In this document: one piece after another, positions 11,366 to 64,000 of the stretch
How the letters are laid out: each line of letters opens with the position of its first letter
How positions within the stretch are numbered: the first letter of the stretch is position 1
NCBI GenBank assembly: GCA_964187785.1
Contig: OZ076409.1
Span: 26,786,001-26,850,000, forward strand
Source: Amphiscolops sp. MND2022
Lineage: Eukaryota
Reading direction: 5' to 3'
DNA length: 64,000 bases
Program-made: the position numbers and the translations under genes
Notes under the pieces: generated by a model
What the model saw: the letters and a program-made list of their open reading frames with translations, nothing else
Databases searched by the model: none
Told to the model about the DNA's origin: nothing

Positions 11366-11383
11366 TGGTGACAGGAGCCAACC
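11366..11383 (+). other. Primer-binding site
   Basis: TGGTGACAGGAG... directly follows the LTR-terminal CA. It resembles tRNA-Leu-type PBSs; the identity of the tRNA is uncertain. Confidence 0.75.
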
Positions 11384-12466: not shown

Positions 12467-12473
12467 TTTAAAC
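12467..12473 (+). other. -1 ribosomal frameshift slippery heptamer (T TTA AAC)
   Basis: The gag frame ends GAT TTA AAC TAG. The -1 frame TTT AAA CTA GAA TTG is the pol frame of ORF 12479-14236. Confidence 0.85.
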
Positions 12474-26492: not shown

Positions 26493-26500
26493 GTAAATAG
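25919..26500 (+). CDS. LTR-encoded truncated Gag N-terminus (stop codon supplied by flanking host DNA)
   Basis: Copy of the gag 5' part (ORF 25748-26500). It runs past the LTR end through the TSD to TAG at 26498-26500. Expression is unknown. Confidence 0.45.
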   Translation: MGNKRSRRSRRLATPSPERETSETRVDSPGTGNITLTNSNLNVQESLGGLNSENQLREPSQISDEIQVWTQIVERKNTERIEKMREEMDNKLEAILKEIKHNKGASMTTNPRSDINEIQEPQPSGSRIDPPIGVHACNRENSDSENDDYPLEASKTKDPKHPTKPLFRSESDIDINIYSDEESEAEIEDYHSK

Positions 26501-33724: not shown

Positions 33725-34904
33725 CATGTACAGGCAAAAGCGCCCCTGACAAAAGCGCCCTAGTCAAAACCGCCCCTGACAAAAGCGCCCCAGTCAAAAG
33801 CGCCCATTTTACACAGACAAAAGCGCCCCAGACAAAAGCGCCCCAACCAGATTCGTCTTGCGAATAATTGTAATGATTTCACACCTAATTTCTATTAACT
33901 GCACATAATTAATTGGCCGTACGCGTAGCCGGATATTACCGAGGGTGACAATTTCACACGTGTTTAAAAGCAGTCAACTTGTTAATTCAGAAGACGCTTT
34001 TCTGAGGCAAGCTGATTCATCTGTTAGGAAATTCATTGCAACTACCACCCAAATGGAAATCACCGCTCTTAAAAGCAATAAAAACCAAGACATTATGACC
34101 CACTGTGGGTATTGATACAGGAAAGCAAGGGACCTCAAAACGGTACGGAGTCATGGAGGTGTTTGAATTAAAACGGCCGGGGCCGAATTAACGTTGGCAA
34201 CGAGATCAAAAGTGTTAGTGAGCATTGCCAAGAGCCACAAACCGAAAAAGTAGAAGAGAAATTATTCCGTGCTGAACTTAAAACACGAGCAGTGTTAACC
34301 GAAGAAAAACCCAAGAGTGTTATTTTGGCAGCTCAGCGATTTCTTACCGTCGAGTCAGGACCGACCTTTTGAGATGAACTTTTGTTTTTTTGTTGTTGTT
34401 ATTGTGTCTTGTTGAAAAAAATTGACCAAAATTTCAAACTATCCCGTGCATGTCTAAAACTGTGCATGCTACAGCTCTGAGAATTTGTCACCATAAAGAG
34501 AGGTTTTTTAAATAAAAAATTCTTCTCTCCCACCCCAACCCGGAACCCTGATAACGGGGGGGGGGTGTTTCCGGGTCATCACATTGAATGAGACTTTTTC
34601 ATGAAAAATTTCCATGTTAGTTTCGAACTCGATGACTAATAGTCAACAACTAAAGTTTTGACCACTGAGCTATCCAGTCTTAATAGGATGAGTTTTGAAT
34701 TGACTTATAAAATGAGTCATTTGATTCAAACAATTTCATTACGTAATCGACATTTCAATAACGAGCATTGAACCAAGACACTTAATTAGTTCGTGAGACA
34801 AAATCAAGGCAATTAAATCCTGAGACGCATTCAATTGGGGCGCTTTTGACTTGGGCGCTTTTGACTGGGGCGCTTTTGTCTGGGGCGCTTTTGTCTAGGT
34901 AACC
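33725..34904 (+). mobile_element. Internally deleted Mutator-like (MULE) DNA transposon
   Basis: 9-bp TSD TTCAAAAAC (33716-33724 and 34905-34913). Inverted subterminal arrays of 15-bp CAAAAGCGCCCC units. Internal FLYWCH remnant. Confidence 0.8.
34053..34372 (+). pseudogene. FLYWCH zinc-finger N-terminus of a MULE transposase
   Basis: MEITALKSNKNQDIMTHCGY*YRKARDLK/GTESWRCLN*NGRGRI...SEHCQEP...AELKTRA, with stops and a frameshift. Confidence 0.7.
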
Positions 34905-39700: not shown

Positions 39701-42700
39701 TTTTGTTTGTAGAACTCACCAAGAAAACAAAAATGGGAGCACTTTTCCGTTCAGTAAAATTGGAAATACATGTATTGAGATAGGAATTTCAGACTTACAC
39801 TTGGTAAAACTCCCATCAATATACATTTTCCAAAAATATCCAAAATCAAATTTCATCTTTGTTTCCGAGAGATTTGAGTGTATCTGCAAGGCAAAATTTA
39901 TCAAAAAATATTTATTGGATCACTGATATTTTCTCAAAAATTAGCAATTTCAAATATTTTCTTCTCAAAATCACATGTTTCTATCTTCGGAAACAGTGAT
40001 GGTTTAATTTTCGAACAAAAACCATGGTATTCATAGCAAAAATTCAAGAATCTTTTGTTTTTACCAAATTGAACCATATCGAATAGTTTTGGAGATATGA
40101 GACTGTAAAATTAGCCTTTTTGAGCAGCCAGGTCGCATTCTTTCTTCACACAACTGTACAACAAACAAATGCTGACATGCAACTTCGAAAAGTTTGAAAT
40201 TTAAAATTTAAAGTGAACCCGGAAAAAATACAAAATTGATTGAGTCATAATCGTCAAACTTGGTTTTGATTACTCCTCAAAACTACTAATTTTGTAAAAT
40301 TGAGAAATCGGGAATAACTGTATATCCATTGTGCAATTCAGCAATTTAATAAGATAGTACAAAAGGTTGAAATTTCAGTATTTCACAATGATTATGCAGT
40401 TATTTCCTTAAGGACTAGATGTTATACCGACAATATCTGAGTCACACAGACCAATAAAGTTTGTATTACCCGTTGAGCGCCGTGATATGTTGCGCCTTGA
40501 GTTATCTCAGCGACCATATGTTTTTGTGCCAATAACGGACAAAATTTACACGTAAAAATTCCATAAAATTCCAAAAAATTTAGCTCTTTCTATCTGTTCT
40601 AGATTCGTGCTATACATTCCTTTGGAAAAACTTTAGATCTATCCTTCCAGAAGTCTCCTAAGTAGCTCATTGATTTGTAATTTGAGCTCTATTGATATTC
40701 ATACAAAACAAAGCTCTCTGAAAACAGAACCCAAGTTGCAAAAGACTCAATTTTATTGGCATTTCGACACTTTTAATTATCGGCACTTGTCAAAACGAGT
40801 TCATTTGTTTCGTTCAAATATGTATTTGAAAAAGTACAAATACAGATGCTATGAACCTCATTGCTTTGTTGTTGAAATCTGTGGAACTTACAAAATAGTT
40901 TTTGAAAAACTATTTTGTGAGTATAAATTTGAAACATATGGCTTTGAGTATGACTTTGACTCTGATATGGAATATGACCAGGAAGTGTAAATTAGGATGC
41001 ATACATTTCTTTAACCAAATGACCTTACACTGAGTTTTAATCTCAAACTTGGAAAACAGTTACCGAATAACAAGACAGAAACCTCTCAAATCGGTGCCCA
41101 CGCTGAAAGCTCAATAAACGGCAAACTTTTCAAAATTGTTAGCGATGAATTGTTTTCATAAAAAAAAACCGAATAATCTATGTGCCAAGAAAACCAAGTG
41201 AGGCCCTTTGAGCTCAAAAGGGTTTTTTTCAGCATAAAATGTCAAAAAAAAACATAGGAGAACCTTTTAATGAAATTGAAAATGCCAAAAAAACTAGACA
41301 ATGCCAAAAAAAAACAAATGAGGAACCATTTGCCGTATTGTAGTTTTGTATATCATGTAAAAAAGAAAACTCAAAAGGAGGACCTTTCGGCTATAATTAG
41401 TACTCCGTAGATCTTAGGCTGACAATTGTAAAAGGTGTACGTTTCAGAATAAAAATTGTCATCACAAAATATTTGCCATTGTAAGAGTCGGGCACTTTTT
41501 CTTACAAAAAGCAGCGAATGAAAACGCATCAAGTTGACGAACTTGAGATTTCTGCCAAGGAGAACTTTCCATTTAGATTTTAAGGAAAACTTCCTGTTCG
41601 TGGTATACAGCCAGGTGTATTTTTCTGAACGAGCTCGAAACAATTGAAACTATAGTTCGTAGTAGGATTGCGATTCAATGGTTTTGAAATGTGAGAAAGA
41701 CTATTGAAGGAGACTTACTATTTGAAGAAGAGGCTATTCTCTTTGTAAACAAACACAATCTTTCTCAAAATCAAAACTAGGAAAAAGTTTGGTTTCACCT
41801 TAGATCAGTCGGACATTCCAAAAACTATTTTTTTCTGGAGAAGACATTTTTTACCGAACGAAAACTACCTCAACGAACCAGCAGTCTTTCAAAGAAGTAA
41901 CAATGAGTTCGAAAACAGAATTCAGGAAAAATATAAAAGTGTATGCAGATATCATTAAAATTGAAAAGAACAAGTCAGAAACAGCTAAGGTCGGTAGACG
42001 GCCTAAAGATCAAGATACACAGAAGATATTTTAAATCTACCCAGGTCCAGTTTTGTGAGCGTTCAGAAAAATTTCACAGAGGCCAATAACATTCCAATTC
42101 TAGAAAGGATTCATCTTGACCGAAACATCGAAAAAAAAACAAATTAACTGAAAGAATAAAAAATCCGGTAAAAAATTGATTTTCGAAAAAAATATGTAGC
42201 GCATTGCCGAAACACTCAGGCTTGCAGAACGCTTTTTGTTTCCTAAAGACATTAGCAAACTAAATAAGAAAACTCTTCGGTGATATGAAATATATTTTCC
42301 CGAAAAGTTGCACAGTACTGAAAAAACTTCAAAGAAGTGTCCCTTGGACCAAATCCAGCTTTTCAAATGGAACAAGTTTGACCAGCGGAAGATTCGAAAC
42401 ATTGAACTTCTCTTTCCCAGCTCCTGTTTCCCGCCTCTCAGTATTTTCAATATTTTACCGTCTTTCGGCGATAATTTTTACATGAACATTTTACCAAAAA
42501 ATTTTTCTGATTTTTCTCAATCCCATGATAGTTTTTGTTTATAGAACTCACCAAGAAAACAAAAATGAGAGCACTTTTCCGTTCAGTAAAATTGGAAATA
42601 CATGTATTGAGATAGGAATTTCAGACTTACACTTGGTAAAACTCCCATCAATATACATTTTCCAAAAATATCCAAAATCAAATTTCATCTTTGTTTCCGA

Positions 42701-45271
42701 GAGATTTGAGTGTATCTGCAAGGCAAAATTTATCAAAAAATATTTATTGGATCACTGATATTTTCTCAAAAATTAGCAATTTCAAATATTTTCTTCTCAA
42801 AATCACATGTTTCTATCTTCGGAAACAGTGATGGTTTAAATTTCGAACAATAACCATGGTATTCATAGCAAAAATTCAAGAATCTTTTGTTTTTACCAAA
42901 TTGAACCATACCGAATAGTTTTGGAGATATGAGACTGTAAAATTAGCCTTTTTGAGCAGCCAGGTCGCATTCTTTCTTCACACAACTGTACAACAAACAA
43001 ATGCTGACATGCAACTTCGAAAAGTTTGAAATTTAAAATTTAAAGTGAACCCGGAAAAAATACAAAATTGATTGAGTCATAATCGTCAAACTTGGTTTTG
43101 ATTACTCCTCAAAACTACTAATTTTGTAAAATTGAGAAATCGGGAATAACTGTATATCCATTGTGCAATTCAGCAATTTAATAAGATAGTACAAAAGGTT
43201 GAAATTTCAATATTTCACAATGATTATGCAGTTATTTCCTTAAGGACTAGATGTTATACCGACAATATCTAAGTCACACAGACCAATAAAGTTTGTATTA
43301 CCCGTTGAGCGCCGTGATATGTTGCGCCTTGAGTTATCTCAGCGACCATATGTTTTGGTGCCAATAACTGACAAAATTTACACGTAAAAATTCCATAAAA
43401 TTCCAAAAAATTTAGCTCTTTCTACCTGTTCTAGATTCGTGCTATACATTCCTTTGGAAAAACTTTAGATCTATCCTTCCAGAAGTCTCCTAAGTAGCTC
43501 ATTGATTTGTAATTTGAGCTCTATTGATATTCATACAAAACAAAGCTCTCTGAAAATAGAACCCAAGTTGCAAAAGACTCAATTTTATTGGCATTTCGAC
43601 ACTTTTAATTATCGGCACTTGTCAAAACGAGTTCATTTGTTTCGTTTAAATATGTATTTGAAAAAAGTACAAATACAGATGCTATGAACCTCATTGCTTT
43701 GTTGTTGAAATCTGTGGAACTTACAAAATAGTTTTTGAAAAACTATTTTGTGAGTATAAATTTGAAACATATGGCTTTGAGTATGACTTTGACTCTGATA
43801 TGGAATATGACCAGGAAGTGTAAATTAGGATGCATACATTTCTTTAACCAAATGACCTTACACTGAGTTTTAATCTCAAACTTGGAAAACAGTTACCGAA
43901 TAACAAGACAGAAACCTCTCAAATCGGTGCCCACGCTGAAAGCTCAATAAACGGCAAACTTTTCAAAATTGTTAGCGATGAATTGTTTTCATAAAAAAAC
44001 CGAATAATCTATGTGCCAAGAAAACCAAGTGAGGCCCTTTGAGCTCAAAAGGGTTTTTTTCAGCTTAAAATGTCAAAAAAAACATAGGAGAACCTTTTAA
44101 TGAAATTGAAAATGCCAAAAAAACTAGACAATGCCAAAAAAAAACAAATGAGGAACCATTTGCCGTATTGTAGTTTTGTATATCATGTAAAAAAGAAAAC
44201 TCAAAAGGAGGACCTTTCGGCTATCATTAGTACTCCGTAGATCTTAGGCTGACAATTGTAAAAGGTGTACGTTTCAGAATGAAAATTGTCATCACAAAAT
44301 ACTTGCCATTGTAAGAGTCGGGCACTTTTTCTTACAAAAAGCAGCGAATGAAAACGCATCAAGTTGACGAACTTGAGATTTCTGCCAAGGAGAACTTTCC
44401 ATTTAGATTTTAAGGAAAACTTCCTGTTCGTGGTATACAGCCAGGTGTATTTTTCTGAACGAGCTCGAAACAATTGAAACTATAGTTCGTAGTAGGATTG
44501 CGATTCAATGGTTTTGAAATGTGAGAAAGACTATTGAAGGAGCCTTACTATTTGAAGAAGAGGCTATTCTCTTTGTAAACAAACACAATCTTTCTCAAAA
44601 TCAAAACTAGGAAAAAGTTTGGTTTCACCTTAGATCAGTCGGACATTCCAAAAACTATTTTTTTCTGGAGAAGACATTTTTTACCGAACGAAAACTACCT
44701 CAACGAACCAGCAGTCTTTCAAAGAAGTAACAATGAGTTCGAAAACAGAATTCAGGAAAAATATAAAAGTGTATGCAGATATCATTAAAATTGAAAAGAA
44801 CAAGTCAGAAACAGCTAAGGTCGGTAGACGGCCTAAAGATCAAGATACACAGAAGATATTTTAAATCTACCCAGGTCCAGTTTTGTGAGCGTTCAGAAAA
44901 ATTTCACAGAGGCCAATAACTTCCAATTCTAGAAAGGATTCATCTTGACCGAAACATCGAAAAAAAAACAAATTAACTGAAAGAATAAAAAATCCGGTAA
45001 AAATTTGATTTTCGAAAAAAATATGTAGCGCATTGCCGAAACACTCAGGTTTGCAGAACGCTTTTTGTTTCCTAAAGACATCAGCAAACTAAATAAGAAA
45101 ACTCTTCGGTGATATGAAATATATTTTCCCGAAAAGTCGCACAGTACTGAAAAAACTTCAAAGAAGTGTCCCTTGGACCAAATCCAGCTTTTCAAATGGA
45201 ACAAGTTTGACCAGCGGAGGATTCGAACCATTGAACTTCTATTTCCCAGCTCCTGTTTCCCGCCTCTCAGT
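36774..45271. repeat. Three head-to-tail copies of a ~2.83-kb non-coding unit
   Basis: Unit starts at 36774, 39606 and 42438; the array ends at ~45271. The same short ORFs recur in each copy, with scattered SNPs and indels. Confidence 0.95.
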
Positions 45272-45312: not shown

Positions 45313-46749
45313 GTTACGTGGTGGAAGATCCCGCGAATTTTCCGGAACTTCTAATTTTTATTCGACGCTTTTGTTAGGAAATGCAGACCATAGAAGTGCT
45401 TTCACTAAAGACCACCAGCGAACAGATTCTTTGCATCTGTAACACGCGTAAATTCGTTGTCAAAAATTTGGAAAAGAGACTTTTGGTCTTATCGGGTATC
45501 GCAATTCATTTAATATTGGGAAAGAGTTACTGGGGGATTTTGTAGCAATAAATGCGTGTTATTCTAGAACAACATTGTATGTCTATGACATTTCAACGCT
45601 TACGAACGCTTATGTTACAAGCATACATAATGTTTGAAACATGTCAGAGCATCGTAGATAATACAAATAGTTTTAGATTGTTTTTCTACAAAAGATGTCT
45701 TCTCATTTCATGACTCTGTCAAAGTTACGGCCTCGCCAACTCTAACTTTGTTTCATTTTCTCACTTCGTCGTTTGTCAAAAAGCCGATTGCGTATACAAC
45801 CTTCTACCGAACACAACATCAAAATTGATCTGATGATATTTCAATAATCCAAAAACACACGTTGAACAAGAGCCCAGTGCTTTTCAATTTTCTGAATGCG
45901 TCAGCTTATAAATTATTTGTTATTTAGATGTGTCAGTTTTGAATTGCTAAATTCTATGAACGTTTCTTAACTTCAGGATAAGAATGTTTATAGCAATTTT
46001 GATAGTCTCTAACATATACTAGCCTTTTAAACTGCCAACAGTAAAAGTGCTCAAAATAAAAGCTTAAAAAAGAATACGAATACGATAGAATATGAAAATA
46101 ACGTAAAGTTTGAACCGTTGTGACGTTCGAATTCAGTGCCCAAAGTAGAAGTTGAAATTGGGTTTCAAATAATGAAATTTCCTATGCCGTCTAAACTCTT
46201 CCAGGCAGCCCTGAAAGGTTTCATATTTTATTCACTAGTGTCTTAATTAATTTGATTAGAAGGGAGGAATAAAAGCGTGAACGAACAAACGGAAGTGTGG
46301 AAACTTAAATCATCTCAGCTGATGACAGATTTTTCATTATTCAGAGTTGTCGCTAAAATTATTTCCGCTAGCTTAATGGTTTCGATAAAACTTGATGACA
46401 TCGAAAAGTTCACGCAATACAATTTTGCTTCAAACAGGAATAAGTCAAACCGATCAATTGGTCAATTTTGTGGAACTAGAGGGGAAAACTTTCATTCCGT
46501 CGAATTCGTTTTTTCCCCGACATATCGATTTGATTGATACCAGGGGTGGCCCCAAATAAGGATTTCTCATTTTTATCACCTAAGTGGAAGTTATCACCTA
46601 AAAGCCAGCAATGAAATTTTATTTCCAACCAATAGTCAATAGTGTGACAAGCTTTAACAAGTAGCTTCAACAAACTTAACAGTATCTTGTTTTGCTTCTA
46701 CATTTTTCAACAACGTCCACGACGTCGGATGACATCTTTTTCCTATAAC

Positions 46750-48464
46750 TGTGAAATTTTTGATTCTTTGGCGTTTCAGAAAAAAACCCATCTTTTTTGC
46801 GCGAATCACAGGTTATAGATCGAACTAAATTTCAGACATTCCACAATGTGTAAATCAGTAAAAACAGCTGAAAAGGCGAATTTAGCGTATTTCGTTAATG
46901 ATTTTGGCAAACGGAATAATAGAAAGTGTGAACTCGATTGTTTGAGTAATATAGAATCGACGTCAACAACGAAATTGTTCGAATTAGCTAAGTTAGAATC
47001 GACTGCTTCGAACGAATTTTGCTAAGTCTTTATTTTGGACGGAAACAGAGATCTGAGGGAAAAAAGGCCACCCTCCCTTTTTGGGAAGGACTTATCCGAT
47101 CAAGCTGAAAATTGGCTTGCATTAACTAGAGGTGTTAACTCAACTTTCGACTCGGAGTACTCGACCTCGTACCTCCCCCCAGTCCCGAGCTATTAGCACC
47201 GGAAGTGACCCAGGTCCACCCCCTACGAACTCGTCGGCCAAGTACGGAAAAAGTCGAATTATACATAGAATTGATAGCCCATATGATATTAGGCCGTTTG
47301 CGCACATTTTCGGACACCCACGACGTGTGTAGGAGGAGTACGGACCCTAAGTAAATAAACCCCGAATGTTATGTAAATAGCCAGCGGACGACCCCAAGAT
47401 CATGAAACTTACCCAAGATGTTCACCTAGCGACCCTAAGTAATATACATGAAAGATACATTGATCGATCCACTACGCGCGGAGTAATGTTTGTTTAAGGC
47501 ATGCGGGACCGGACGCACGGGCCCGGCCGATAAATGACATTTGACCTTGGCTTGTAATATATCAAACGAACCGGAATAACGAATGTAGTTGATTGCGATT
47601 GTGAACGGATCAGTATTCATAACCCATGCGGGGGTAACCGCCTTAAGTAAACAAACAATACGCATAACATGTAACTCGGGACCCGTTGACCCTAGGATGT
47701 TATAACTTGGTATATAGCAAACTTGGATGAGAGCCAATAACTTCAAGGTCACCGATGGACCTCAAGGTCATTTTAGATGCAACCCCTGAGGAGATAGGAA
47801 AACGTACATTAAAACATGTAAATCAGCGTCTGTAAGTGATAATTTATGCAATTCAGTCAGGCGGAACGATTCGCGATGTATTTCACCTAGGATGATAGAA
47901 AAGTACCCCTTACGCGTAGAGAACATGTATACCATGTAGTTGAAGGTCATTGAGCAATTTCTTCGATATTAAAAAAATCTTGGGTGACTTGGATTATTAT
48001 TGAAATGTGGACTTCGATCAAGATGATGAAAGATTTATCGTTGGCGGCAAGGAATGTTTAGTCGAAGTATAATTAGACGCGTTCACTATGCCATAAAAGG
48101 AATAGTAAACATGAAGGTAAACTCATGCAGATTTAAGACGCCGACGCCCTGTATGTAACGAAAATGTCAAGTATGATAGAAAGTCAAGATGAGATGACCA
48201 GAAACACGTGCGAAGAACAAATATAACTGAGGCGGCATTAGAACATAATTGAATAGACAGAACCGAGTTAGAAGGCTGGGAGCAAGTTGAGTCTCGCGGA
48301 GACAAGATACTTCTTCGGATAAATACTCACGCTTCTCGACAACCGAGTTAGAGAGCTAGAATTCAGTTGAGCCTCTGGACGGGGGCAAGAGATTCGAACT
48401 GGCTGGAGTAACTGGTCGTCGTTAACTCCGGGAGTCAGTGACAGAAACTGTACAAGTCCGGGAC
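46750..48464 (+). repeat. LTR1, 3'-truncated by a 444-bp deletion that also removes the PBS and gag start
   Basis: The junction GGGAC|GCGAG joins the equivalents of 53197 and 53642, with AC microhomology. Confidence 0.9.
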
Positions 48465-50624
48465 GCGAGCAGCTTGAGTTTGCGATGCAGGCCGTTGGAA
48501 GAGCAGTGAAAGGCAATCAGAATCGAGTCTTCAATTACGGAACCATTCGACCAGATAGGTTTCCTTCGAGTTCGTTTGCCGATTGGGTTCAATGGAAGAC
48601 CCACTTTATCGCAGTGGCCGAAGCGAATAGGTGGACAGACCCAGAGGCTATCGGTGCACTGCCAGTGTGTTTGAGTGGACATGCCTTGGAAGAGTTTCAG
48701 GCAGCACCCCGGGAACTGAAGACTCAGGTAGTGAATCGACGGGCGCCTACTTTACGAGCACTCTTTGAGCACTTGGACCAAGTGATGGGAGTCACAAGAA
48801 ACGATAGAGCAGGGCGCAACGAATTCAAAAGTTTGGTTCAGAAGGAGAGCGAACCCTTGAGGGAGTTTGCACGTCGCGTTCGCAATTTGGGACTGCTGGT
48901 CTTTGGTCATCAGGAAGCAGATCAGCGAGACGAATTGTTCCGTGAACGTTTTTTAGATGGACTATCAGATTCAGACCTGCTAGGAGTTTTGCTACGAGAA
49001 CGAGCGCATGGATTTGTTGGTACTGTGGATAGAGCGGTGGAGTTGGAACTATTGCCAACTCAGCAAGAACTAGGCCGAGCACACGAGTTGTGTACGCCAG
49101 GCTTGCACAGGAGTCAGCTGTTGCAGCTGAAGATCGAACTGCAGTGACGGAGACGAAGCAGCAGTTGGATGAAAGGACTAGGGCATTGAGCAGTCTGACG
49201 AATATGGTGGGCCAATTTGTTTCTACAGTGGTCAGTGCCCGTCGATGCGATGTGTGCGGCGAAGATGGTCACCCTGCAGAAGTTTTTCGACTCATCAGGA
49301 ATACTTTAAACTTGTGAGGGCCGGGAGACCGTCACAAGAGAAAGTTTTCCCGGCCGCACCAGAAGCTACGTTATCGCAACAGCAAGCAGAAGACATTGTG
49401 AAAGCGGTAGCGTCAAGGATAGCTACACAAAAGGTTCGCCAAGAATGTACCAATGAGATTCCACGAAGCGAACAGATGAAAGTGGAAACAATTGGAGTGG
49501 CCCGAGAAGTACTGCCCAGCAACAACAGCGCTCAGCAGCTTGGTATCATTGCGATGCACGTGGACCAACTCCGAACAGTGCGTGAAGTGATGAAGACGAG
49601 AGGGCAAGAATTCGACAGCGCTTTGGGAGGTACGTCAAAGCTTGTGAGCTCTTTCGGAAAGATATACACCGCTGCCGACACAACTGACAATGGAATCGCT
49701 GCTAGCCTCGAAAACCCCATTGTTCCATGGTCCCAACCGAGTGGCAGCAATGCAGAAGGGAAGTATGCGCCCCAGGTAGCTGTGAGGACGTGTACTCCAG
49801 TGTAAGGTTGTTTCGAATTATTCGATCGAAGTCAAGTCAGAATCACTAGCGCCAAAATTTTGCAACGTGAAAAGAAGCTGAATGAAAAGAAAGTCGTCAA
49901 GCCACAAGCGCGACGAGGAGCTGGTGAGCATCAATTGTGTCACCCTGGGCAACCGTTGGGATTGGAGGCTCACCAACTTGACAAAGAAAAGCCGGAAGAG
50001 CTTGACAAACCGCATGAATTGTCCGAGGACGATGAAGCGATGATTGATGAGCTGTTGAAAGAACTGGAAGAGCTTGACAAACCGCATGAATTGTCCCAGG
50101 ACGATGAAGCGATGATTGATGCTCTGTTACACGAATTGGAACTCGAGATTGCGTTCCCAGCCAGAGAAGAACGAATAGAATTGACCGCCAAAATAGAAGA
50201 AAATGAACTCCGTGCGAACCCCGATGTGTCAGCCGAAAGTACCAGTGAGGACAATGCGGCCAGCAGCTCAGAAGCTACGATGGAAGCAGAAGGGAGGTGC
50301 GGGTCAAAACGCTCTCACTTGACTGGGCGTTTTCAGCGACCAAACAGTCTTATTACCGTTGAAGTAATCCACCAGCGCCCAACACTCTGCCACAGAAGGC
50401 GATTGTGGGTATCCCACAGAAAGCATGGTAGATGGAAACATGAGCGACAGCAGATGGGCTTACGTGGGCTCTGCTGGCCGACCCACCGAAAGCATGGCAG
50501 ATGGAAACCCGACGAAATGGTGATCCCCCCGCTGCCAATGCAACCGAGACCGGAAGGGACCCGACGCTGGAGCAGCCGAAGGAAGAGATCAAGGTGGAAG
50601 TCTGTAAATCGATGCAGTGTCTAA
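48465..50624 (+). pseudogene. Copy 1 of gag (5'-truncated) plus frameshift-linked ORF2
   Basis: Near-identical to 53642-55801; slippery site TTTAAAC at 49305. Confidence 0.8.
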
Positions 50625-51484
50625 CGAGGCAATACGATGCTGCGATGTATGTGAAACTCCACTAACCGAACACTTAAGTATCAATTTCGCCAAAACTGAT
50701 TTTTTTTAATCATTAAGGTTTCAATTTATCCTTTTTCGTGAAGTCAGTATACTTCTTGTTGTCCAGGCAAATCAAGGTTCCGCCGACCGTAGTTTTTTTT
50801 GCAAGACGATGAAATTGTATGTAATTTTTTTCGATGAGTAACCTTTCAGAGGCTGAACTTCGAGGATCCCAATTCTTGTGTTTATATTCACTTCAATGTA
50901 TCAAAACCAAACCCTGACCCTAACAGATTACATTTATGAAAGCGCCTATGAGCATACCCACACCCCCTCTCTCGCGACCCCTACCCTAGTGCTACTCTCC
51001 TTGTTGTTTTGTTAGGCGCGATAACTAGCCCCAAACAATCCAAACTTATCCTCGAACATTCAAATTAGGAACAGTAGAACTCGTCCTTTGCGCATTGCCA
51101 AAAGGAAAAGATGCAATAAATTATTTTAGTAGGTTATTAGGAATGAATTGTTTGATTTGCTGTGGGACTGGGCGGCCATGAGAACGCACCATGAAGACCA
51201 GGAATATGAGGATGTCCTCAGTCTACTAGACTATATGAGCGATTAATAAGGTTTGTTAATTTATAGTCGCTTTAACTGATGTCTAAATTGCCTACTTTAA
51301 TTTTTTTATTTGGATGTTACACTAGTTCATCATTATTGTTGATAAATATCCAGCGGAGCTATGGACGCTTTGATTAGCCCACCCTCATCTAACCCATAAT
51401 ATATGTGTAACCTTGATACCACGATTCAGCCAACGACAAGACCGCTACGTTTATTCGGGAGAATAAAAGTCCAGAAGGGAAGAG

Positions 51485-53495
51485 TGTGAAATTTTTGATT
51501 CTTTGTCGTTTCAGAAAAAAACCCATCATTTTTGCGCGAATCACAGGTTATAGATCGAACTAAATTTCAGACATTCCACAATGTGTAAATCAGTAAAAAC
51601 AGATGAAAAGGCGAATTTAGCGTATTTCGTTAATGATTTTGGCAAACGGAATAATAGAAAGAGTGAACTCGATTGTTTGAGTATAGAATCGACGTCAACA
51701 ACGAAATTGTTCTAATTAGCTAAGTTAGAATCGACTGCTTCGAACGAATTTTGCTAAGTCTTTATTTTGGACGGAAACAGAGATCTGAGGGAAAAAAGGC
51801 CACCCCCCCTTTTTGGAAAGGACTTATCCGATCAAGATGAAATTTGGCTTGCATAAACTAGAGGTGTTAACTCAACTTTCGACTCGGAGTACCCGACCTC
51901 GTACCTCCCCCCAGTCCCGAGCTATTAGCACCGGAAGTGACCCAGGTCCACCCCCCTACGAACTCGTCAGCCAAGCACGGAAAAAGTCGAATTATACATA
52001 GAATTGATAGCCCATATGATATTAGGCCGTTTGCGCACATTTTCGGACACCCACGACGCGTGTAGGAGGAGTACGGACCCTAAGTAAATAAACCCCGAAT
52101 GTTATGTAAATAGCCAACGGACGACCCCAAGATCATGAAACTTACCCAAGATGTTCACCTAGCGACCCTAAGTAATATACATGAAAGATACATTGATCGA
52201 TCCACTACGCGCGGAGTAATGTTTGTTTAAGGCACGCGGGACCGGACGCACGGGCTCGGCCGATAAATGACATTTGACCTTGGCTTGTAATATATCAAAC
52301 GAACCGGAATAACGAATGTAGTTGATTGCGATTGTGAACGAATCAGTATTCATAACCCATGCGGGGGTAACCGCCTTAAGTAAACAAACAATACGCATAA
52401 CATGTAACTCGGGAACCGTTGACCCTAGGATGTTATAACTTGGTATATAGCAAACTTGGATGAGAGCCAATAACTTCAAGGTCACCGATGGACCTCAAGG
52501 TCATTTTAGATGCAACCCCTGAGGAGATAGGAAAACGTACATTAAAACATGTAAATCAGCGTCTGTAAGTGATAATTTATGCAATTCAGTCAGGCGGAAC
52601 GATTCGCGATGTATTTCACCTAGGATGATAGAAAAGTACCCCTTACGCGTAGAGTACATGTAAACCATGTAGTTGAAGGTCATTGAGCAATTTCTTCGAT
52701 AATAAAAATATCTTGGGTGACGTGGATTATTATTGAAATGTGGACTTCGATCAAGATGATGAAATATTTATCGTTGGCGGCAAGGAATGTTTAGTCGAAG
52801 TATAATTAGACGCGTTCACTATGCCATAAAAGGAATAGTAAACTTGAAGGTAAACTCTTGCAGATTTAAGACGCCGACGCCCTGTATGTAACGAAAATGT
52901 CAAGTATGATAGAAAGTCAAGATGAGATGACCAGAAACACGTGCGACGAACAAATATAACTGAGGCGGCATTAGAACATAATTGAATAGACAGAACCGAG
53001 TTAGAAGGCTGGGAGCAAGTTGAGTCTCGCGGAGACAAGATACTTCTTCGGATAAATACTCGCGCTTCTCGACAACCGAGTTAGAGAGCTAGAATTCAGT
53101 TGAGCCTCTGGACGGGGGCAAGAGATTCGAACTGGCTGGAGTAACTGGTCGTCGTTAACTCCGGGAGTCAGTGACAGAAATTGTACAAGTCCGGGACTTG
53201 ACGATTGTTTGATTCAGTTGGCTGGATCGTGATATATAAATATTCGCTGAGAAATCAATTGGAAGATTGTTTTCATCGTGTTCTGTGATTTTATATCAAT
53301 TTCTTAACTCGATCATTCTAACCTACAGTCTCATTGCGAATATAGAGCCGATAGAGCAATTTGGAGAGAAACTAGTGTCAAGCTAGTCCTATGAGCAGAA
53401 GCAAGAACGAAACTTACTCACCAAAATCAAACCTTTCTGTTAAGAGTTGAGCCTTGGGTTTTTTCTCTCCGACCCCTCTGGCTAAATTTTTTACA
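51485..53495 (+). repeat. LTR2 (2011 bp), shared central LTR
   Basis: Preceded by the PPT and followed by an atypical PBS-position sequence, GTTGCGCATCTGGG. Confidence 0.93.
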
Positions 53496-53622
53496 GTTGC
53501 GCATCTGGGTGGGCTTTGCTTTGCTTTCTTTTACTGGTTACGTTTTACAACATTTGTTTCGAGTTCTGGATTCCAACTTGAACATATATTCGTAGAGTTG
53601 GATATTATACAAGGATTTCATT

Positions 53623-54494
53623 ATGGATCAAGACGCAAAACGCGAGCTGCTTGAGTTTGCGATGCAGGCCGTTGGAAGAGCAGTGAAAGGCAATCAGAAT
53701 CGAGTCTTCAATTACGGAACCATTCGACCAGATAGGTTTCCTTCGAGTTCGTTTGCCGATTGGGTTCAATGGAAGACCCACTTTATCGCAGTGGCCGAAG
53801 CGAATAGGTGGACAGACCCAGAGGCTATCGGTGCACTGCCAGTGTGTTTGAGTGGACATGCCTTGGAAGAGTTTCAGGCAGCACCCCGGGAACTGAAGAC
53901 TCAGGTAGTGAATCGACGGGCGCCTACTTTACGAGCACTCTTTGAGCACTTGGACCAAGTGATGGGAGTCACAAGAAACGATAGAGCAGGGCGCAACGAA
54001 TTCAAAAGTTTGGTTCAGAAGGAGAGCGAACCCTTGAGGGAGTTTGCACGTCGCGTTCGCAATTTGGGACTGCTGGTCTTTGGTCATCAGGAAGCAGATC
54101 AGCGAGACGAATTGTTCCGTGAACGTTTTTTAGATGGACTATCAGATTCAGACCTGCTAGGAGTTTTGCTACGAGAACGAGCGCATGGATTTGTTGGTAC
54201 TGTGGATAGAGCGGTGGAGTTGGAACTATTGCCAACTCAGCAAGAACTAGGCCGAGCACACGAGTTGTGTACGCCAGGCTTGCACAGGAGTCAGCTGTTG
54301 CAGCTGAAGATCGAACTGCAGTGACGGAGACGAAGCAGCAGTTGGATGAAAGGACTAGGGCATTGAGCAGTCTGACGAATATGGTGGGACAATTTGTTTC
54401 TACAGTGGTCAGTGCCCGTCGATGCGATGTGTGCGGCGAAGATGGTCACCCTGCAGAAGTTTTTCGACTCATCAGGAATCCTTTAAACTTGTGA
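53623..54494 (+). pseudogene. gag: Gag-like protein (frameshift at ~54226) with a degenerate zinc knuckle
   Basis: PDRF...DWVQWKTHFIAVAEANRW...LPVCLSGHALEEF...QKESEPLREFARRVRNL...RERFLDGL is typical retrotransposon capsid sequence; CDVCGEDGHPAEVF knuckle remnant. Confidence 0.85.
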
Positions 54495-55801
54495 GGGCCG
54501 GGAGACCGTCACAAGAGAAAGTATTCCCGGCCGCACCAGAAGCTACGTTATCGCAACAGCAAGCAGAAGACATTGTGAAAGCGGCAGCGTCAAGGATAGC
54601 TACACAAAAGGTTCGCCAAGAATGTACCAATGAGATTCCACGAAGCGAACAGATAAAAGTGGAAACAATTGGAGTGGCCCGAGAAGTACTGCCCAGCAAC
54701 AACAGCGCTCAGCAGCTTGGTATCATTGCGATGCACGTGGACCAACTCCGAACAGTGCGTGAAGTGATGAAGACGAGAGGGCAAGAATTCGACAGCGCTT
54801 TGGGAGGTACGTCAAAGCTTGTGAGCTCTTTCGGAAAGATATACACCGCTGCCGACACAACTGACAATGGAATCGCTGCTAGCCTCGAAAACCCCATTGT
54901 TCCATGGTCCCAACCGAGTGGCAGCAATGCAGAAGGGAAGTATGCGCCCCAGGTAGCTGTGAGGACGTGTACTCCAGTGTAAGGTTGTTTCGAATTATTC
55001 GATCGAAGTCAAGTCAGAATCACTAGCGCCAAAATTTTGCAACGTGAAAAGAAGCTGAATGAAAAGAAAGTCGTCAAGCCACAAGCGCGACGAGGAGCTG
55101 GTGAGCATCAATTGTGTCACCCTGGGCAACCGTTGGGATTGGAGGCTCACCAACTTGACAAAGAAAAGCCGGAAGAGCTTGACAAACCGCATGAATTGTC
55201 CGAGGACGATGAAGCGATGATTGATGAGCTGTTGAAAGAACTGGAAGAGCTTGACAAACCGCATGAATTGTCCCAGGACGATGAAGCGATGATTGATGCT
55301 CTGTTACACGAATTGGAACTCGAGATTGCGTTCCCAGCCAGAGAAGAACGAATAGAATTGACCGCCAAAATAGAAGAAAATGAACTCCGTGCGAACCCCG
55401 ATGTGTCAGCCGAAAGTACCAGTGAGGACAATGCGGCCAGCAGCTCAGAAGCTACGATGGAAGCAGAAGGGAGGTGCGGGTCAAAACGCTCTCACTTGAC
55501 TGGGCGTTTTCAGCGACCAAACAGTCTTATTACCGTTGAAGTAATCCACCAGCGCCCAACACTCTGCCACAGAAGGCGATTGTGGGTATCCCACAGAAAG
55601 CATGGTAGATGGAAACATGAGCGACAGCAGATGGGCTTACGTGGGCTCTGCTGGCCGACCCACCGAAAGCATGGCAGATGGAAACCCGACGAAATGGTGA
55701 TGCCCCCGCTGCCAATGCAACCGAGACCGGAAGGGACCCGACGCTGGAGCAGCCGAAGGAAGAGATCAAGGTGGAAGTCTGTAAATCGATGCAGTGTCTA
55801 A
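54482..55801 (+). pseudogene. ORF2 in the pol position, lacking recognisable PR/RT/RH/IN motifs; one in-frame TAA at 54980
   Basis: ORFs 54422-54982 and 55037-55801 are in the same frame, entered by -1 slippage at TTTAAAC 54482. Contains a duplicated acidic 20-aa unit and a twice-repeated HRKHGRWK. Confidence 0.6.
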
Positions 55802-56662
55802 CGAGGCAATACGATGCTGCGATGTATGTGAAACTCCACTAACCGAACACTTAAGTATCAATTTCGCCAAAACTGATTTTTTTTTAATCATTAAGGTTTC
55901 AAATTATCCTTTTTCGTGAAGTCAGTATACTTCTTGTTGTCCAGGCAAATCAAGGTTCCGCCGACCGTAGTTTTTTTTGCAAGACGATGAAATTGTATGT
56001 AATTTTTTTCGATGAGTAACCTTTCAGAGGCTGAACTTCGAGGATCCCAATTCTTGTGTTTATATTCACTTCAATGTATCAAAACCCAACCCTGACCCTA
56101 ACAGATTACATTTATGAAAGCGCATATGAACATGCCCACACCCCCTCTCTCGCGACCCCTACCCTAGTGCTACTCTCCTTGTTGTTTTGTTAGGCGCGAT
56201 AACTAGCCGCAAACAATCCAAACTTATTCTCGAACATTCAAATTAGGATCAGTAGAACTCGTCCTTTGCGCATTGCCAAAAAGAAAAGATGCAATAAATT
56301 ATTTTAATAGGTTAATAGGAATGAATTGTTTGATTTGCTGTGGGACTGGGCGGCCATGAGAACGCACCATGAAGACCAGGAATATGAGGATGTCCTCAGT
56401 CTACTAGACTATATGAGCGATTAATAAGGTTTGTTAATTTATAGTCGCTTTAACTGATGTCTAAATTGCCTACTTTAATTTTTTTATTTGAATGTTACAC
56501 TAGTTCATCATTATTGTAGATAAATATCCAGCGGAGCTATGGACGCTTTTATTAGCCCACCCTCATCTAACCCATAATATATGTGTAACCTTGATCCCAC
56601 GATTCAGCCAACGACAAGACCGCTACGTTTATTCGGGAGAATAAAAGTCCAGAAGGGAAGAG

Positions 56663-58673
56663 TGTGAAATTTTGGATTCTTTGGCGTTTCAAAAAAATAC
56701 CCATCATTTTTGCGCGAATCACAGGTTATAGATCGAACTAAATTTCAGACATTCCACAATGTGTAAATCAGTAAAAACAGCTGAAAAGGCGAGTTTAGCG
56801 TATTTCGTTAATGATTTTGGCAAACGGAATAATAGAAAGAGTGAACTCGATTGTTTGAGTATAGAATCGACGTCAACAACGAAATTGTTCTAATTAGCTA
56901 AGTTAGAATCGACTGCTTCGAACGAATTTTGCTAAGTCTTTATTTTGGACGGAAACAGAGATCTGAGGGAAAAAAGGCCACCCCCCCTTTTTGGAAAGGA
57001 CTTATCCGATCAAGATGAAATTTGGCTTGCATAAACTAGAGGTGTTAACTCAACTTTCGACTCGGAGTACCCGACCTCGTACCTCCCCCCAGTCCCGAGC
57101 TATTAGCACAGGAAGTGACCCAGGTCCACCCCCCTACGAACTCGTCAGCCAAGCACGGAAAAAGTCGAATTATACATAGAATTGATAGCCCATATGATAT
57201 TAGGCCGTTTGCGCACATTTTCGGACACCCACGACGCGTGTAGGAGGAGTACGGACCCTAAGTAAATAAACCCCGAATGTTATGTAAATAGCCAACGGAC
57301 GACCCCAAGATCATGAAACTTACCCAAGATGTTCACCTAGCGACCCTAAGTAATATACATGAAAGATACATTGATCAATCCACTACGCGCGGAGTAATGT
57401 TTGTTTAAGGCACGCGGGACCGGACGCACGGGCCCGGCCGATAAATGACATTTGACCTTGGCTTGTAATATATCAAACGAACCGGAATAACGAATGTAGT
57501 TGATTGCGATTGTGAACGGATCAGTATTCATAACCCATGCGGGGGTAACCGCCTTAAGTAAACAAACAATACGCATAACATGTAACTCGGGACCCGTTGA
57601 CCCTAGGATGTTATAACTTGGTATATAGCAAACTTGGATGAGAGCCAATAACTTCAAGGTCACCGATGGACCTCAAGGTCATTTTAGATGCAACCCCTGA
57701 GGAGATAGGAAAACGTACATTAAAACATGTAAATCAGCGTCTGTAAGTGATAATTTATGCAATTCAGTCAGGCGGAACGATTCGCGATGTATTTCACCTA
57801 GGATGATAGAAAAGTACCCCTTACGCGTAGAGAACATGTATACCATGTAGTTGAAGGTCATTGAGCAATTTCTTCGATATTAAAAAAATCTTGGGTGACT
57901 TGGATTATTATTGAAATGTGGACTTCGATCAAGATGATGAAAGATTTATCGTTGGCGGCAAGGAATGTTTAGTCGAAGTATAATTAGACGCGTTCACTAT
58001 GCCATAAAAGGAATAGTAAACATGAAGGTAAACTCATGCAGATTTAAGACGCCGACGCCCTGTATGTAACGAAAATGTCAAGTATGATAGAAAGTCAAGA
58101 TGAGATGACCAGAAACACGTGCGACGAACAAATATAATTGAGGCGGAATTAGAACATAATTGAATAGACAGAACCGAGTTAGAAGGCTGGGAGCAAGTTG
58201 AGTCTCGCGGAGACAAGATACTTCTTCGGATAAATACTCGCGCTTCTCGACAACCGAGTTAGAGAGCTAGAATTCAGTTGAGCCTCTGGACGGGGGCAAG
58301 AGATTCGAACTGGCTGGAGTAACTGGTCGTCGTTAACTCCGGGAGTCAGTGACAGAAATTGTACAAGTCCGGGACTTGACGATTGTTTGATTCAGTTGGC
58401 TGGATCGTGATATATAGATATTCGCTGAGAAATCAATTGGAAGATTGTTTTCATCGTGTTCTGTGATTTTATATCAATTTCTTAACTCGATTATTCTAAC
58501 CTACAGTCTCATTGCGAATATAGAGCCGATAGAGCAATTTGGAGAGAAACTAGTGTCAAGCTAGTCCTATGAGCAGAAGCAAGAACGAAACTTACTCACC
58601 AAAATCAAACCTTTCTGTTAAGAGTTGAGCCTTGGGTTTTTCCTCTCCGACCCCTCTGGCTAAATTTTTTACA
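56663..58673 (+). repeat. LTR3 (2011 bp)
   Basis: Preceded by the PPT, ends in CA, and is followed by the TSD ATAAC. Confidence 0.93.
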
Positions 58674-58712
58674 ATAACCAAAAATTTGGACCGACCATAA
58701 GAGTTGGCACAC

Positions 58713-58904
58713 GAGTAGTAAGTAGTTGTACGTGGCATTTTATGTGGGGGGTTGAGTGAGTAACCAAATATGGTCATAACGCAGACTCCAAAATGACGTC
58801 ATGATTGCGACACAATGATGTAACCGAATGCAAATGTTTTGTTGTTACCATATTTGATTACTCACTCAACCCCCCACATAAAATGCCAGGTACAACTACT
58901 ACTC
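58713..58904. mobile_element. ~190-bp palindromic MITE-like element
   Basis: ~60-bp inverted arms (AGTAGTTGTACGTGGCATTTTATGTGGGGGGTTGAGTGAGTAA and its complement); possible ACAC TSD. Confidence 0.65.
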
Positions 58905-59914: not shown

Positions 59915-60866
59915 GTGACTTTTTGACTTATTACCAAAGATTGACAAGGGTTGTCAAGCGACTCTCAAACCCAAAGACAATGGGCTTGCTTTTCGATGGA
60001 GCTCTTTGACAATGCATTGACAGTAGCTCAATTTTACAACCCAAGTCTTAGCAGCTCACTGAAAGAGAATAATTATAAGGGAGGCGGAAACTTCGTCGTC
60101 AGAAAATTCGTCGTCAAAAATTTCGTCGTATTGGTTAGAATAACAGCGTTCACCAAAAGGTATCATTTGAATTATTCAACTTTTTAATTATTAAAATGAG
60201 ATCTTAGGAACAAGTTTCATTTTGACACCCAAACTGAGTCAAAAAGTTAATTGCATTCAATCAACTCATCAGGACGCTTATTGAGCAATGGTCCTACAGT
60301 CCTACAGGTGGAACACAATTCAAGCTTGTTTCGGGGGAATTTTTTGCTTTTCGCCAGAAAATTATCAAAAATCTTCGTACTTCGTAATTTTTGCTTTAAG
60401 TGTCGAAACAACTTTGTGTTGAGGAATAAGAAACAAGGTGTATCTGGGGGGATAAGGTCTGAAACTTTTTCTCAAAACCATAAGTAAAAGTAGTAGTAAT
60501 CTACTACTTAAAAAACGATAGTAATAATTGCACAATTATCAACAATTATTAAGATTCAATGAAAAGGCGATTCCTAATAGATTGAAGAAAATGCGACGTT
60601 TCATAGAACGTAATCACAGACGACGAAATTTCTGACGACGAAATTTCCGACAACGAAATTTCCGACGGCGAAATTTCCGACGACGAAATTTCTGGTAAAC
60701 ACTTGTAATTGTGCTTTGTTAGTGAGCTGCTAATACTTGGGTTGTAAAATTAAGCTATTGTAAATGCATTTTCAAAGAGCTCCATCGGAAAGCAAGCCCG
60801 TTGTCTTTGGGTTTGAGAGTCGCTTGACAACCGTTGTCAATCTTTGGTTATAAGTCAAAAAGTCAC
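59915..60866. mobile_element. Foldback structure: ~165-bp outer inverted arms enclosing an inner element with inverted 15-bp GACGACGAAATTTC arrays
   Basis: 59915-60080 is the reverse complement of ~60702-60866. Inner arrays lie at 60090-60130 and 60620-60695. Confidence 0.75.
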
Positions 60867-61399: not shown

Positions 61400-64000
61400 G
61401 ATCAACGAAAATTAAGGGTGCAAGTTGTACAGCTGGATATTCTTCTCACCCAGTTGAGTTTTGATTAGATATCTCTTGAATTGGGTTGAATCTTGAAACA
61501 GTGCCTTAATGACACGACCCAAAGGCCATAACTTTCTTCGAGTGTATTCTTTTAAAATCCAAACTAAGGTACCAGGTTTCAAATCTATGGTTTTAACTGT
61601 CCATTTCTTTCTAGGTGATGAAGTTGGGTAATATTCTTTCTGCAGTCGCTTCCATACGTGGTCAGCCAGTTGTTGGGCACATTTCTATTCTCGAGTCAAA
61701 GGTGTGCTATTCTCATTGTAAAATGTCAAAGAAATTTTGCCATGAGCTGTCCCCAAGAGAAAATGATTAGGAGTATGCGCTTCTATATTACGAACATTTG
61801 TGGAAATACTAGTCAGTGGACCTCAGTTCAAGAAACCTTCTATTTCACAAAGTAGTGTTGTAAAGGTGTCGTTTGTTAGGGTTTGGCAACCAAGGATGGA
61901 GTAAAATGCATCCTTGCATGGTCGGATCAAGCGTTCCCACAAACCCCCGAAATGCGGAGCCTGAGCAGTGTTTAGATGCCATTGTTTTCCTAAGTTGGTG
62001 AAAAAGTCATGTACTTGAGTCGAGTCGAAAATTTTTTGTAATTCCTTCTCAGCAGCAGTGAATTTCCTTCCTCCACCAGACACTAGTTGCGCGGGATAAC
62101 CGCGCCGAGAAAAGAAACGTTGCAGGGCGTTCATAGTTGCATTGCATGAAAGATCGACACACATTTCCAAATCAACCGCTCTTGTAGTCAGACATGTAAG
62201 TATTAGAGCGTATCGTTTGTTGTAGGTTGACTAAGATTCAGAGGCGAAGAGGCCAAACCAGTTTGTTGAAAAAAGAAAGGTTTTTCTGCTGGAAAGCGGA
62301 ATTCGGGTGGCGACATCTGTGGTAACTCCGCAGCTGCGTGTTGTCGACAACATTCGCGGCAACGTTTAAGCATTTTACGAATCTCATTTGTTATAGACAG
62401 ATTCGAAAACTCGTTCTGGAGCATGTTTCTTGTGTGCTGTAGAGGGCAATGACTATTGGTAACGTGTATTTGGCGTACAAACAATTTAACCACAAGATAT
62501 TTGCCATGTAAGATAATGGGATGTTTTTGGCAATAATCAAAGCCCGATTTCTGGAGTCGGCCTCCTGCTCGAATGAAACATCGGCCGAAAAGAAAGGACT
62601 CAATTGTGCTAAGCGACTGCTTTTTCCAACTGGTCGTTTGCTGGTTAGAGCTAGCATCTCGGGTTGGAAAGAGTCTTTTTGGGACTGAAGTAAGAGGTAC
62701 AGTTTTGCGTTTGAAATATCCTGTGGCTGAACGCAACATTGAGCAATCCCAGGCTGACTTGAGCCTTGCATCATACTGTTAGTGCTGGAGTCCAGCCAGA
62801 CATGCTGCTTGATAGCATGTGAGATGGGTGAGTTGCTCGAATCAATTATCGTCTCATCGTGATCAACACTTTCACGAAAGGACTTGAAAATGCGAACTGC
62901 ACGAGAACTGTTGCACTGACGGGAACTAGCTTCGTCCAATCTGAGAAAGTTTCGAAGTCAAGGATTGGTTTTACTGCTGTGAGCGCTGCTTTGCATTGTA
63001 ACTTTTTCAATTCCACTAAAACTGTGATTAACAGGCCGTCGATTTTCTGGTTGCTGGAGGAGTTGTGGGCCAGAGAACCATCTCCAGTCAGATGAGAAGT
63101 CCTTCAACGGCAAACCTCTGGTTTCGTCGTCCGAAGGGTTCAGTTCTCCATGGCAATGTCGCCATTGGCGAACGTTAGTGTTGTCTAAAATTTCGGCGAC
63201 ATGGTTAGCGACAATAATTCGCTGCCTTTTTTTGGAGTCACGAATCCATTGCAACACGGTGGTACTGTCCGTCCACAACACAAAGTCCGCAATAATTGGT
63301 GTTTGCTCGTTTTTAATGAACTTCGACAGTCGAGATCCAATAAGCGCAGCTTGGAGTTCAAGTTTGGTAGTTGTATGCAGTTTTAGAGGGACAACGCGTG
63401 CTTTTCCTAAGATATAGGAAGGTTTTGGAAATTGAAAAGCAGAAGAGTGGTAAACAAACTATGCTACTGCGGAAACTGCAGGAAAGGAAGCGTCACAGGA
63501 GACGTGGAGTGTTATCTCACTAATTTGACCCAGGATTGCATGTCGTGGAATAGCGATTGTTTTGGAGAATGATGGTATTTTAGAGATTAGATCGAAAAGT
63601 TCAGAAAGGATGTCTGAGGTTGAAACATCATCCCATTTGACACCTTTTCGCCAGAGCAGCTGCTGAATGATTCGGAGACGAATTGTTATGGGTGCAGCGA
63701 TACCCAGAGGATCTAAGATTGATTAAATTATATGTAATAGGTTTCACTGTGTCGAATTGATGGTCGTCAATTCTTTGAGTTTTAGAGGATCGAATAAAAG
63801 TGGGTCACTAGACAAGTCCCATATCACAACTAGAACACGTTGTTGCAACTTCTTTGATTGTATGTCGACGTGGGAAATTCTGCGGTGGGTCTCGGGAATT
63901 GAGTAAAATACATCTTGGGACGTGGTTGTCTATTTTGTTAAATGGAATCCACTTTTCAGCAGAATACAACAAAGAATCTGAAATGAAAGAGTCTGAAAAC
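61400..64000 (-). pseudogene. pol: Decayed BEL/Pao retrotransposon pol (RNase H, integrase, C-terminal domain); continues beyond the window
   Basis: LWTDSTTVLQWI...VANHVAEI...WRHCHGELNPSD, GGRLQKS...KHPIIL, RFFSRRGYP and APHFGGLWERLI motifs, with multiple stops and frameshifts. Confidence 0.9.

Follow-up and report, generated by a model that had tools for sequence, protein, structure and literature searches.

The double LTR-retrotransposon insertion in the window (the entire 64-kb stretch of DNA analysed here) is best explained, with moderate confidence, by a pol-less Ty3/Gypsy family that carries an ancestral -1 frameshift signal, and whose intact members would make a 290-aa Gag together with a minor Gag-X fusion, in which X consists of a predicted disordered tether, acidic helices and a basic tail. 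Non-autonomous elements are usually viewed as gag-only or decaying, whereas this family kept the gag-pol switch. The sequence-only reading had proposed a non-autonomous element producing Gag and Gag-X, possibly to parasitise or interfere with the particles of a helper. This proposal is partly supported, at the level of the family, which is pol-less and has kept the -1 ORF open, but not for the two copies in the window, both of which are dead.

Structure of the tandem insertion

The insertion (46750-58673) has the order LTR-internal-LTR-internal-LTR, and its outer ends are flanked by the 5-bp target-site duplication ATAAC. Its features, in window coordinates, are as follows.

46745-46749, plus strand: target-site duplication ATAAC, left copy (5 bp)
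46750-48464, plus strand: LTR 1, 3' end gone through a 445-bp deletion extending into gag
48464-49317, plus strand: copy 1 gag remnant, start deleted, internal frameshift lesion as in copy 2
49305-50624, plus strand: ORF2 of copy 1 with its slip site and stem, stop codon at 49803-49805
51473-51484, plus strand: copy 1 polypurine tract
51485-53495, plus strand: LTR 2, 2011 bp, TG...CA, common to both tandem copies
53498-53513, plus strand: candidate primer-binding site, by position
53623-54494, plus strand: copy 2 gag, with capsid-like part, lesion at ~54213-54231, damaged zinc knuckle and end ...PLNL-stop
54482-54488, plus strand: slippery heptamer T TTA AAC
54496-54532, plus strand: predicted stimulatory hairpin, arms 54496-54503 and 54525-54532
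54482-55801, plus strand: ORF2 (X), 439 codons in the -1 frame, interrupted by a stop at 54980-54982
55100-55145 (limits approximate), no strand assigned: short inversion within ORF2, frame remains open
55171-55318, plus strand: acidic helix pair, including a 72-nt duplication in the window's subfamily
55570-55798, plus strand: basic Trp/Arg tail
56651-56662, plus strand: copy 2 polypurine tract
56663-58673, plus strand: LTR 3, 2011 bp
58674-58678, plus strand: target-site duplication ATAAC, right copy (5 bp)

The direct 2011-bp LTRs with TG...CA ends, the 5-bp target-site duplication and the polypurine tract before the 3' LTR (a 12-nt purine run precedes both LTR 2 and LTR 3) are those of an LTR retrotransposon of ~7.2 kb. 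The plus-strand ORFs of at least 100 aa in the internal region of 3167 bp are pieces of gag and ORF2 only, and no PR, RT, RNase H or IN was found between the LTRs, which excludes the element from the autonomous class. The gag stop lies 2169 nt upstream of the 3' LTR and the ORF2 stop 862 nt upstream of it. ORF2 was also considered as a bridge to env, which was rejected because the plus strand downstream of it contains no ORF of at least 100 aa. The sequence at 53498-53513 presumably resembles the primer sites of the Ser/Leu type, and no tRNA gene was found in the 64-kb window.

The two copies are 99% identical (23 differences in 3023 columns), lie within one target duplication, and have three lesions in common, namely the gag frameshift, the damaged knuckle and one ORF2 stop; they are therefore one dead element that was duplicated. 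Copy 1 additionally lacks the 445 bp comprising the LTR end, the leader and the start of gag. Neither copy is able to make Gag or Gag-X. A three-LTR tandem is described in PMC13570524 as the commonest tandem form among non-autonomous elements of sugar beet. The tandem is not fully accounted for by a simple unequal exchange involving both LTRs of a single element, given the 13 private sites in LTR 2, where such sites form a block. The copies (53640-56662 and 48463-51484) also diverge unevenly, with 16 differences at 861 positions in the non-coding 3' part versus 7 at 2161 in the coding part (p 5e-5), though both are dead; gene conversion or allelic exchange may be the source.

The frame from the gag ATG at 53623 stops at 54322-54324, and the knuckle and slip site are in a different frame. 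Both copies have the frameshift lesion at ~54213-54231, which the sequence-only reading had overlooked, and the last ligand of the knuckle is missing.

The proposed signal was confirmed as the heptamer TTTAAAC (54482-54488) followed, after a spacer of 7 nt, by a GC-rich 8-bp stem with the arms GGCCGGGA (54496-54503) and TCCCGGCC (54525-54532). The hairpin of copy 2 was calculated at -23.7 kcal/mol (z -3.29), and 0 of 200 shuffles were equally stable; for copy 1, z was -2.51 and 3 of 200 shuffles were equally stable. The same layout is present in copy 1 at 49305, as had been claimed, but it is not separate evidence, since copy 1 is a tandem duplicate with 99% identity and identical lesions. A slippery heptamer with a perfect 8-bp stem was found for 9 of 522 heptamers on the plus strand of the whole window and for 8 of 523 on the minus strand, and with these 17 occurrences the pattern by itself proves little. 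Judged from sequence, the signal at 54482 is real by its position, stability and conservation, and not by the pattern alone. It has the features of a programmed -1 signal, namely an XXXYYYZ heptamer read in the zero frame, a structure that follows after 5-9 nt, and conservation across relatives (in the DNA of two related loci, L004 and L006, and in family proteins by read-back). No convincing pseudoknot was found at the signal, and an Rfam scan of 51400-58700 gave no match. The heptamer U_UUA_AAC is ranked among the most shift-prone ones in PMC5009743.

Origin of the signal and of gag

The junctions of relatives were sought by a DNA pattern scan, which returned 8 loci. Two of these, L004 and L006, were true gag junctions, and the other six had no tblastn match to the family. 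In both L004 and L006 the heptamer, the 7-nt spacer and the 8-bp arms are as in the window, while the loop differs. The -1 frame of L004 encodes a protease (E 9e-6) and, beyond one stop, an RT (E 1e-35), for which the closest solved structure is Ty3 RT (E 5e-62). Because this pol-bearing relative enters protease and RT through the same signal, the signal is the ordinary Ty3/Gypsy gag-pol junction, inherited by the pol-less family and not special to it. The canonical junction shares with the window the heptamer, the spacer length, the arms and a homologous gag; its shifted frame contains protease and RT, whereas here it contains X. The unusual part is what comes after the signal, not the signal itself. 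Pol was reported in the -1 frame in 28 of 51 animal elements (PMC5009743). No relatives of the L004 RT were found in viral or genome contigs.

Within the family, 52 stored proteins contain the junction, and 35 of the 38 that extend to the slip site read FKL. The 3' stem arm reads PA in 48 of the 52, and the loop occurs in 10 forms. This conservation was read back from proteins of a redundant set, in which 29 of the 52 junctions are of one loop type, and for the 5' arm it is circular, because the pattern used for selection included this arm. Both arms of the stem are identical, without covariation, and no compensatory changes were seen. The protein P0126, which is ~40% identical to the window ORF2, has the knuckle and ORF2 in one frame at this junction, which we attribute, from its sequence, to a lesion or a sequencing slip. 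Together with several whole gags and ORF2s from contigs equal in size, P0126 suggests that gag and ORF2 are adjacent in sister elements as well. Another protein, P0170, joins mid-gag straight to mid-ORF2, skipping the knuckle and slip site, and is apparently an in-frame internal deletion copy.

The gag, with a Ty3-type capsid and a CCHC knuckle, is classed by homology as Ty3/Gypsy (Metaviridae) by descent. In the ESM Atlas it matched PNMA, Retrotrans_gag, Ty3_capsid and zf-CCHC clusters at 0.92-0.96, and the family gag showed 33% identity to that of L006 (E 2e-46), the sister contig of which, L004, has the Ty3-like RT. Pfam gave a weak match for the window gag (PNMA, E 0.047) and none for the protein P0067, and the gag fold model (pLDDT 40.3) was too poor for use. 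The family clusters number 84, 37 and 10 members, and the truncated gag of the window falls in the largest. Among the 15 members listed of this cluster, seven are 290-aa gags with a whole CCHC knuckle, six of which end in PLNL. Searches by peptide patterns detected no gag relatives in viral contigs or JGI metagenomes.

In the closest long gag relatives (P0057-P0065 and P0119), Gag and protease share a single frame with a Macro-like domain, which scored just below the cut-off in Pfam (E 2e-4 to 0.02), and the frame contains no RT; one cluster of such proteins has 87 members. When an autonomous partner was sought among long proteins with a related protease, a single match was obtained, P0119, which is without RT.

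Sequence and constraint of the shifted frame

The -1 frame of ~440 codons that had been described was borne out: it has 439 codons and one stop (54980-54982), whereas the stops number 20 and 24 in the two remaining plus frames and 7-12 in those of the minus strand. Likewise, the reported absence of PR, RT and IN agrees with Pfam, which was blank for both pieces of ORF2 at E<=1. ORF2 homologs formed 55 clusters with 38-90% identity, all unnamed ENA proteins without Pfam domains, and 30 of the 55 are at least 375 aa long; the sample favours whole ORFs, since the search took proteins of 241-769 aa only. The sequence-only reading had staked itself on ORF2 being conserved as an ORF in other copies, and it is open across subfamilies. 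For example, 206 of the 401 residues aligned between P0083 and P0039 are different; at 0.066 stops per replacement, ~13 stops should have arisen in the absence of selection, yet both proteins are whole. The family frame of 410-470 codons is open over ~50% protein divergence. No match to ORF2 was found in PDB sequences (best E 0.16) or in the ESM Atlas (best 0.77).

The AlphaFold model of ORF2 had a pLDDT of 41.7, with confident helices near residues 22-38 and 215-256 only, and X is predicted to be mostly disordered. In each of the six members profiled, the charge is neutral at first, then strongly acidic and finally strongly basic. The acidic repeat noticed earlier corresponds to a 72-nt repeat, and the basic Trp-rich tail is as described. 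The acidic helix pair, which is the main confidently predicted structure, is also the only region of ORF2 with conservative substitutions: 62% of 45 shared variants are conservative versus ~33% for neutral change (p 8e-5). The conservative fraction was 0.26 in the middle part, 0.20 after the helices and 0.28 in the tail, against the same ~0.33. As controls, linkers of the Gag-protease-Macro proteins gave 0.24-0.25, distant gag pairs 0.32-0.35, and closer gag, protease and Macro pairs 0.45-0.55; the test is blunt, as distant gag pairs reach just 0.32-0.35. By this measure, no protein-level constraint is seen over most of ORF2, which drifts as if neutral yet is stop-free, a behaviour that the sequence-only reading had not anticipated.

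The frame also withstands rearrangement. Within the inversion at 55100-55145, the minus strand reads a motif that 57 stored family proteins have on the plus strand, and the inverted segment was seen in 6 proteins in addition to the window's own, with the frame open. The end point of the tail differs among members, the ORF2 ends shifting in frame within the same short zone. The acidic and basic module was further found fused in frame, without a frameshift, to an unrelated gag (P0048, P0104), and the basic tail motif recurs at the end of the Gag-protease-Macro protein P0119 (pairwise E 2e-4). P0048, P0103 and P0104 combine a distant gag family and a different spacer with the same acidic-helix and basic-tail module.

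Role of Gag-X and competing explanations

Gag-Pol enters Ty3/Gypsy particles by its Gag part. On the explanation we favour, ribosomes would shift -1 at TTTAAAC in intact members and yield Gag and the minor Gag-X, which would co-assemble through its Gag part into the slot normally occupied by Gag-Pol, while the enzymes would be supplied in trans by some autonomous element. Selection would hold the frame stop-free, allowing the acidic helices and the basic tail to be produced, and the middle of X would be a spacer of nearly irrelevant sequence. The task of the module may be, as a speculative guess, to keep RNA or the Pol of the helper in the particle. An extension of this model, doubtful at present, is that the frameshift has become a cargo port: the mobile parasite would have exchanged its enzymes for a swappable acidic/basic module, common to unrelated gags of one genome and dosed at Gag-Pol stoichiometry, in order to capture the Pol or RNA of a helper.

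The main rival to the Gag-X tether reading, which we regard as unlikely, is that a few shifted ribosomes sweep the region past the gag stop and so protect the genomic RNA from NMD, the X protein being a by-product. Low-level readthrough and -1 frameshifting have been reported to protect reporters from NMD (PMC6277124, PMC5360307), and several properties of the family would fit: the 2169 nt between the gag stop and the 3' LTR, the neutral drift of most of X with its tolerated inversion and in-frame indels, and the ORF2 ends that vary in frame but cluster in one short zone. However, such protection would not call for conservative change in the acidic helices or for the fusion of the module without a frameshift to another gag (P0048, P0104), and a long 3' region would persist even with the shift, since ORF2 ends 862 nt short of the LTR. 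Two other readings fit less well. One of them, a dominant-negative restriction factor in which Gag-X poisons the particles of an autonomous family to the benefit of the host or the element, is very unlikely. A cargo fused to Gag would be expected to co-assemble, and the domesticated PNMA3 and PNMA5 are described as retaining a -1 shift into a disordered non-pol frame (PMC5009743, PMC11299033); but the family has LTRs, a target-site duplication and many dispersed members (the clusters of 84, 37 and 10), and thus behaves as a mobile parasite in need of a helper rather than as a fixed host gene.

The other reading takes ORF2 as a functionless remnant of pol: after a large deletion, its first third would remain in eroded form (transframe helix, inactive protease, pre-RT helix and beginning of RT), open through past selection and biased sampling. 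We consider this functionless-relic reading unlikely. It draws on the first ORF2 helix, for which 7 of 12 comparisons gave the highest score at the helix that follows the knuckle in a Gag-protease relative (the anchor was chosen by eye), and which gave profile E values of 0.16-0.42 against the segment between knuckle and protease of such a relative. Some ORF2 windows, in addition, had best matches to held-out pols that lay roughly in order along the protease, the pre-RT part and the beginning of RT (E 0.09-0.34), and against an RT-start profile the tail scored above each of 40 column shuffles, although the region was picked after an earlier result and column shuffles are too lenient, as a non-collinear match beat them too. 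With block shuffles, the real score was equalled in 35 of 60 and 39 of 60 runs, and no ORF2 window beat its own shuffles against a database with six pols; the pol profiles contained just 4-7 sequences. A HMMER profile search of 1.84 billion proteins gave 64 matches, none longer than 415 aa, and 21 of those newly found were scanned with Pfam and contained no domain. A DTG/DSG motif is absent from the 112 family proteins, one of which has a YxDD-like word. By-eye matches to a protease site, a pre-RT helix and an RT start (E 0.04-0.6) did not beat the controls and were rejected as proof of pol. The alignment to decayed pol that the sequence-only reading had named as contrary evidence thus appeared as weak ordered matches, and these did not beat the stricter block-shuffle and HMMER controls. 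Moreover, a functionless frame would not survive whole across 50% divergence. Pol ancestry for parts of X, which would be compatible with the Gag-X explanation, is a tentative possibility short of even; partial pol ancestry leaves the intact frame unexplained.

Gag-bearing non-autonomous families are already known from the accounts of TR-GAG and Athila. The TR-GAG elements of plants are described as non-autonomous LTR elements with gag, without enzymes and with signs of mobility (PMC4350172). Like the window element, they have LTRs and have kept gag without the enzymes; as described there, they have a single ORF and are shorter than 4 kb, whereas the window element has ~7.2 kb and a second ORF of 439 codons behind a -1 signal, which sets it apart from this class. 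In Arabidopsis, pol-less Athila comprises whole Ty3/Gypsy families with intact ORFs, purifying selection, mobilisation in trans and recombination between families (PMC2410132), and resembles the window family in that an entire Ty3/Gypsy family is without pol. Its second ORF is env-like, and the available part of the same source describes no frameshift into it, while X has no recognisable family and stands in the frame and place of pol. In PNMA3 and PNMA5, a gag derived from Ty3/Gypsy is followed by a conserved -1 shift, and the frame entered in this way is disordered, evolves fast and resembles no known protein (PMC5009743, PMC10516033, PMC11299033); here, too, gag is followed by a -1 signal, which leads into a frame predicted to be disordered and without a known domain. 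According to these accounts PNMA3 and PNMA5 are immobile single host genes with GGGAAAC and, in PNMA3, a pseudoknot, whereas the window family is multi-copy and mobile and carries TTTAAAC with a hairpin; with its LTRs, target-site duplication and many copies, it is not a single fixed locus without LTRs of the PNMA type. For the second frames of PNMA3 and PNMA5, which are still unexplained, it offers a counterpart that is mobile. Among the papers returned by the literature searches (repeat databases lay outside them), none describes in its title or abstract a mobile element that lacks pol but retains a -1 shift into some other ORF. In this natural element, selection for translation can be told apart from selection on the sequence, and it becomes possible to test in what way elements without pol obtain their enzymes in trans and whether frameshifting itself shields retroelement RNA against decay.

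The window as a whole is eukaryotic and repeat-rich, with ~35-40% GC. An unrelated full Gypsy gag-pol (PR, RT, RNase H, IN) lies in pieces at 10621-17178, and near 24800-26500 there is another copy, which is truncated. The resemblance between the pre-RT helix of this gag-pol and the acidic helix of ORF2 is by eye only (E 0.37). Minus-strand ORFs of 349-470 aa were found at 17548-18645, 20505-21917 and 23815-24864, Pfam being blank for the two scanned. A BEL/Pao remnant (Peptidase_A17, E 4e-7), which suggests that the host is an animal, occupies 61823-63458 on the minus strand. The intervals 18968-19255, 33731-34899, 59915-60866 and 58721-58900 contain a 32-nt tandem array together with several inverted-repeat elements, whose arms measure 165 nt in one case, and a unit of ~2.83 kb is present at 36774-45220 in three tandem copies which are 97-99% alike.
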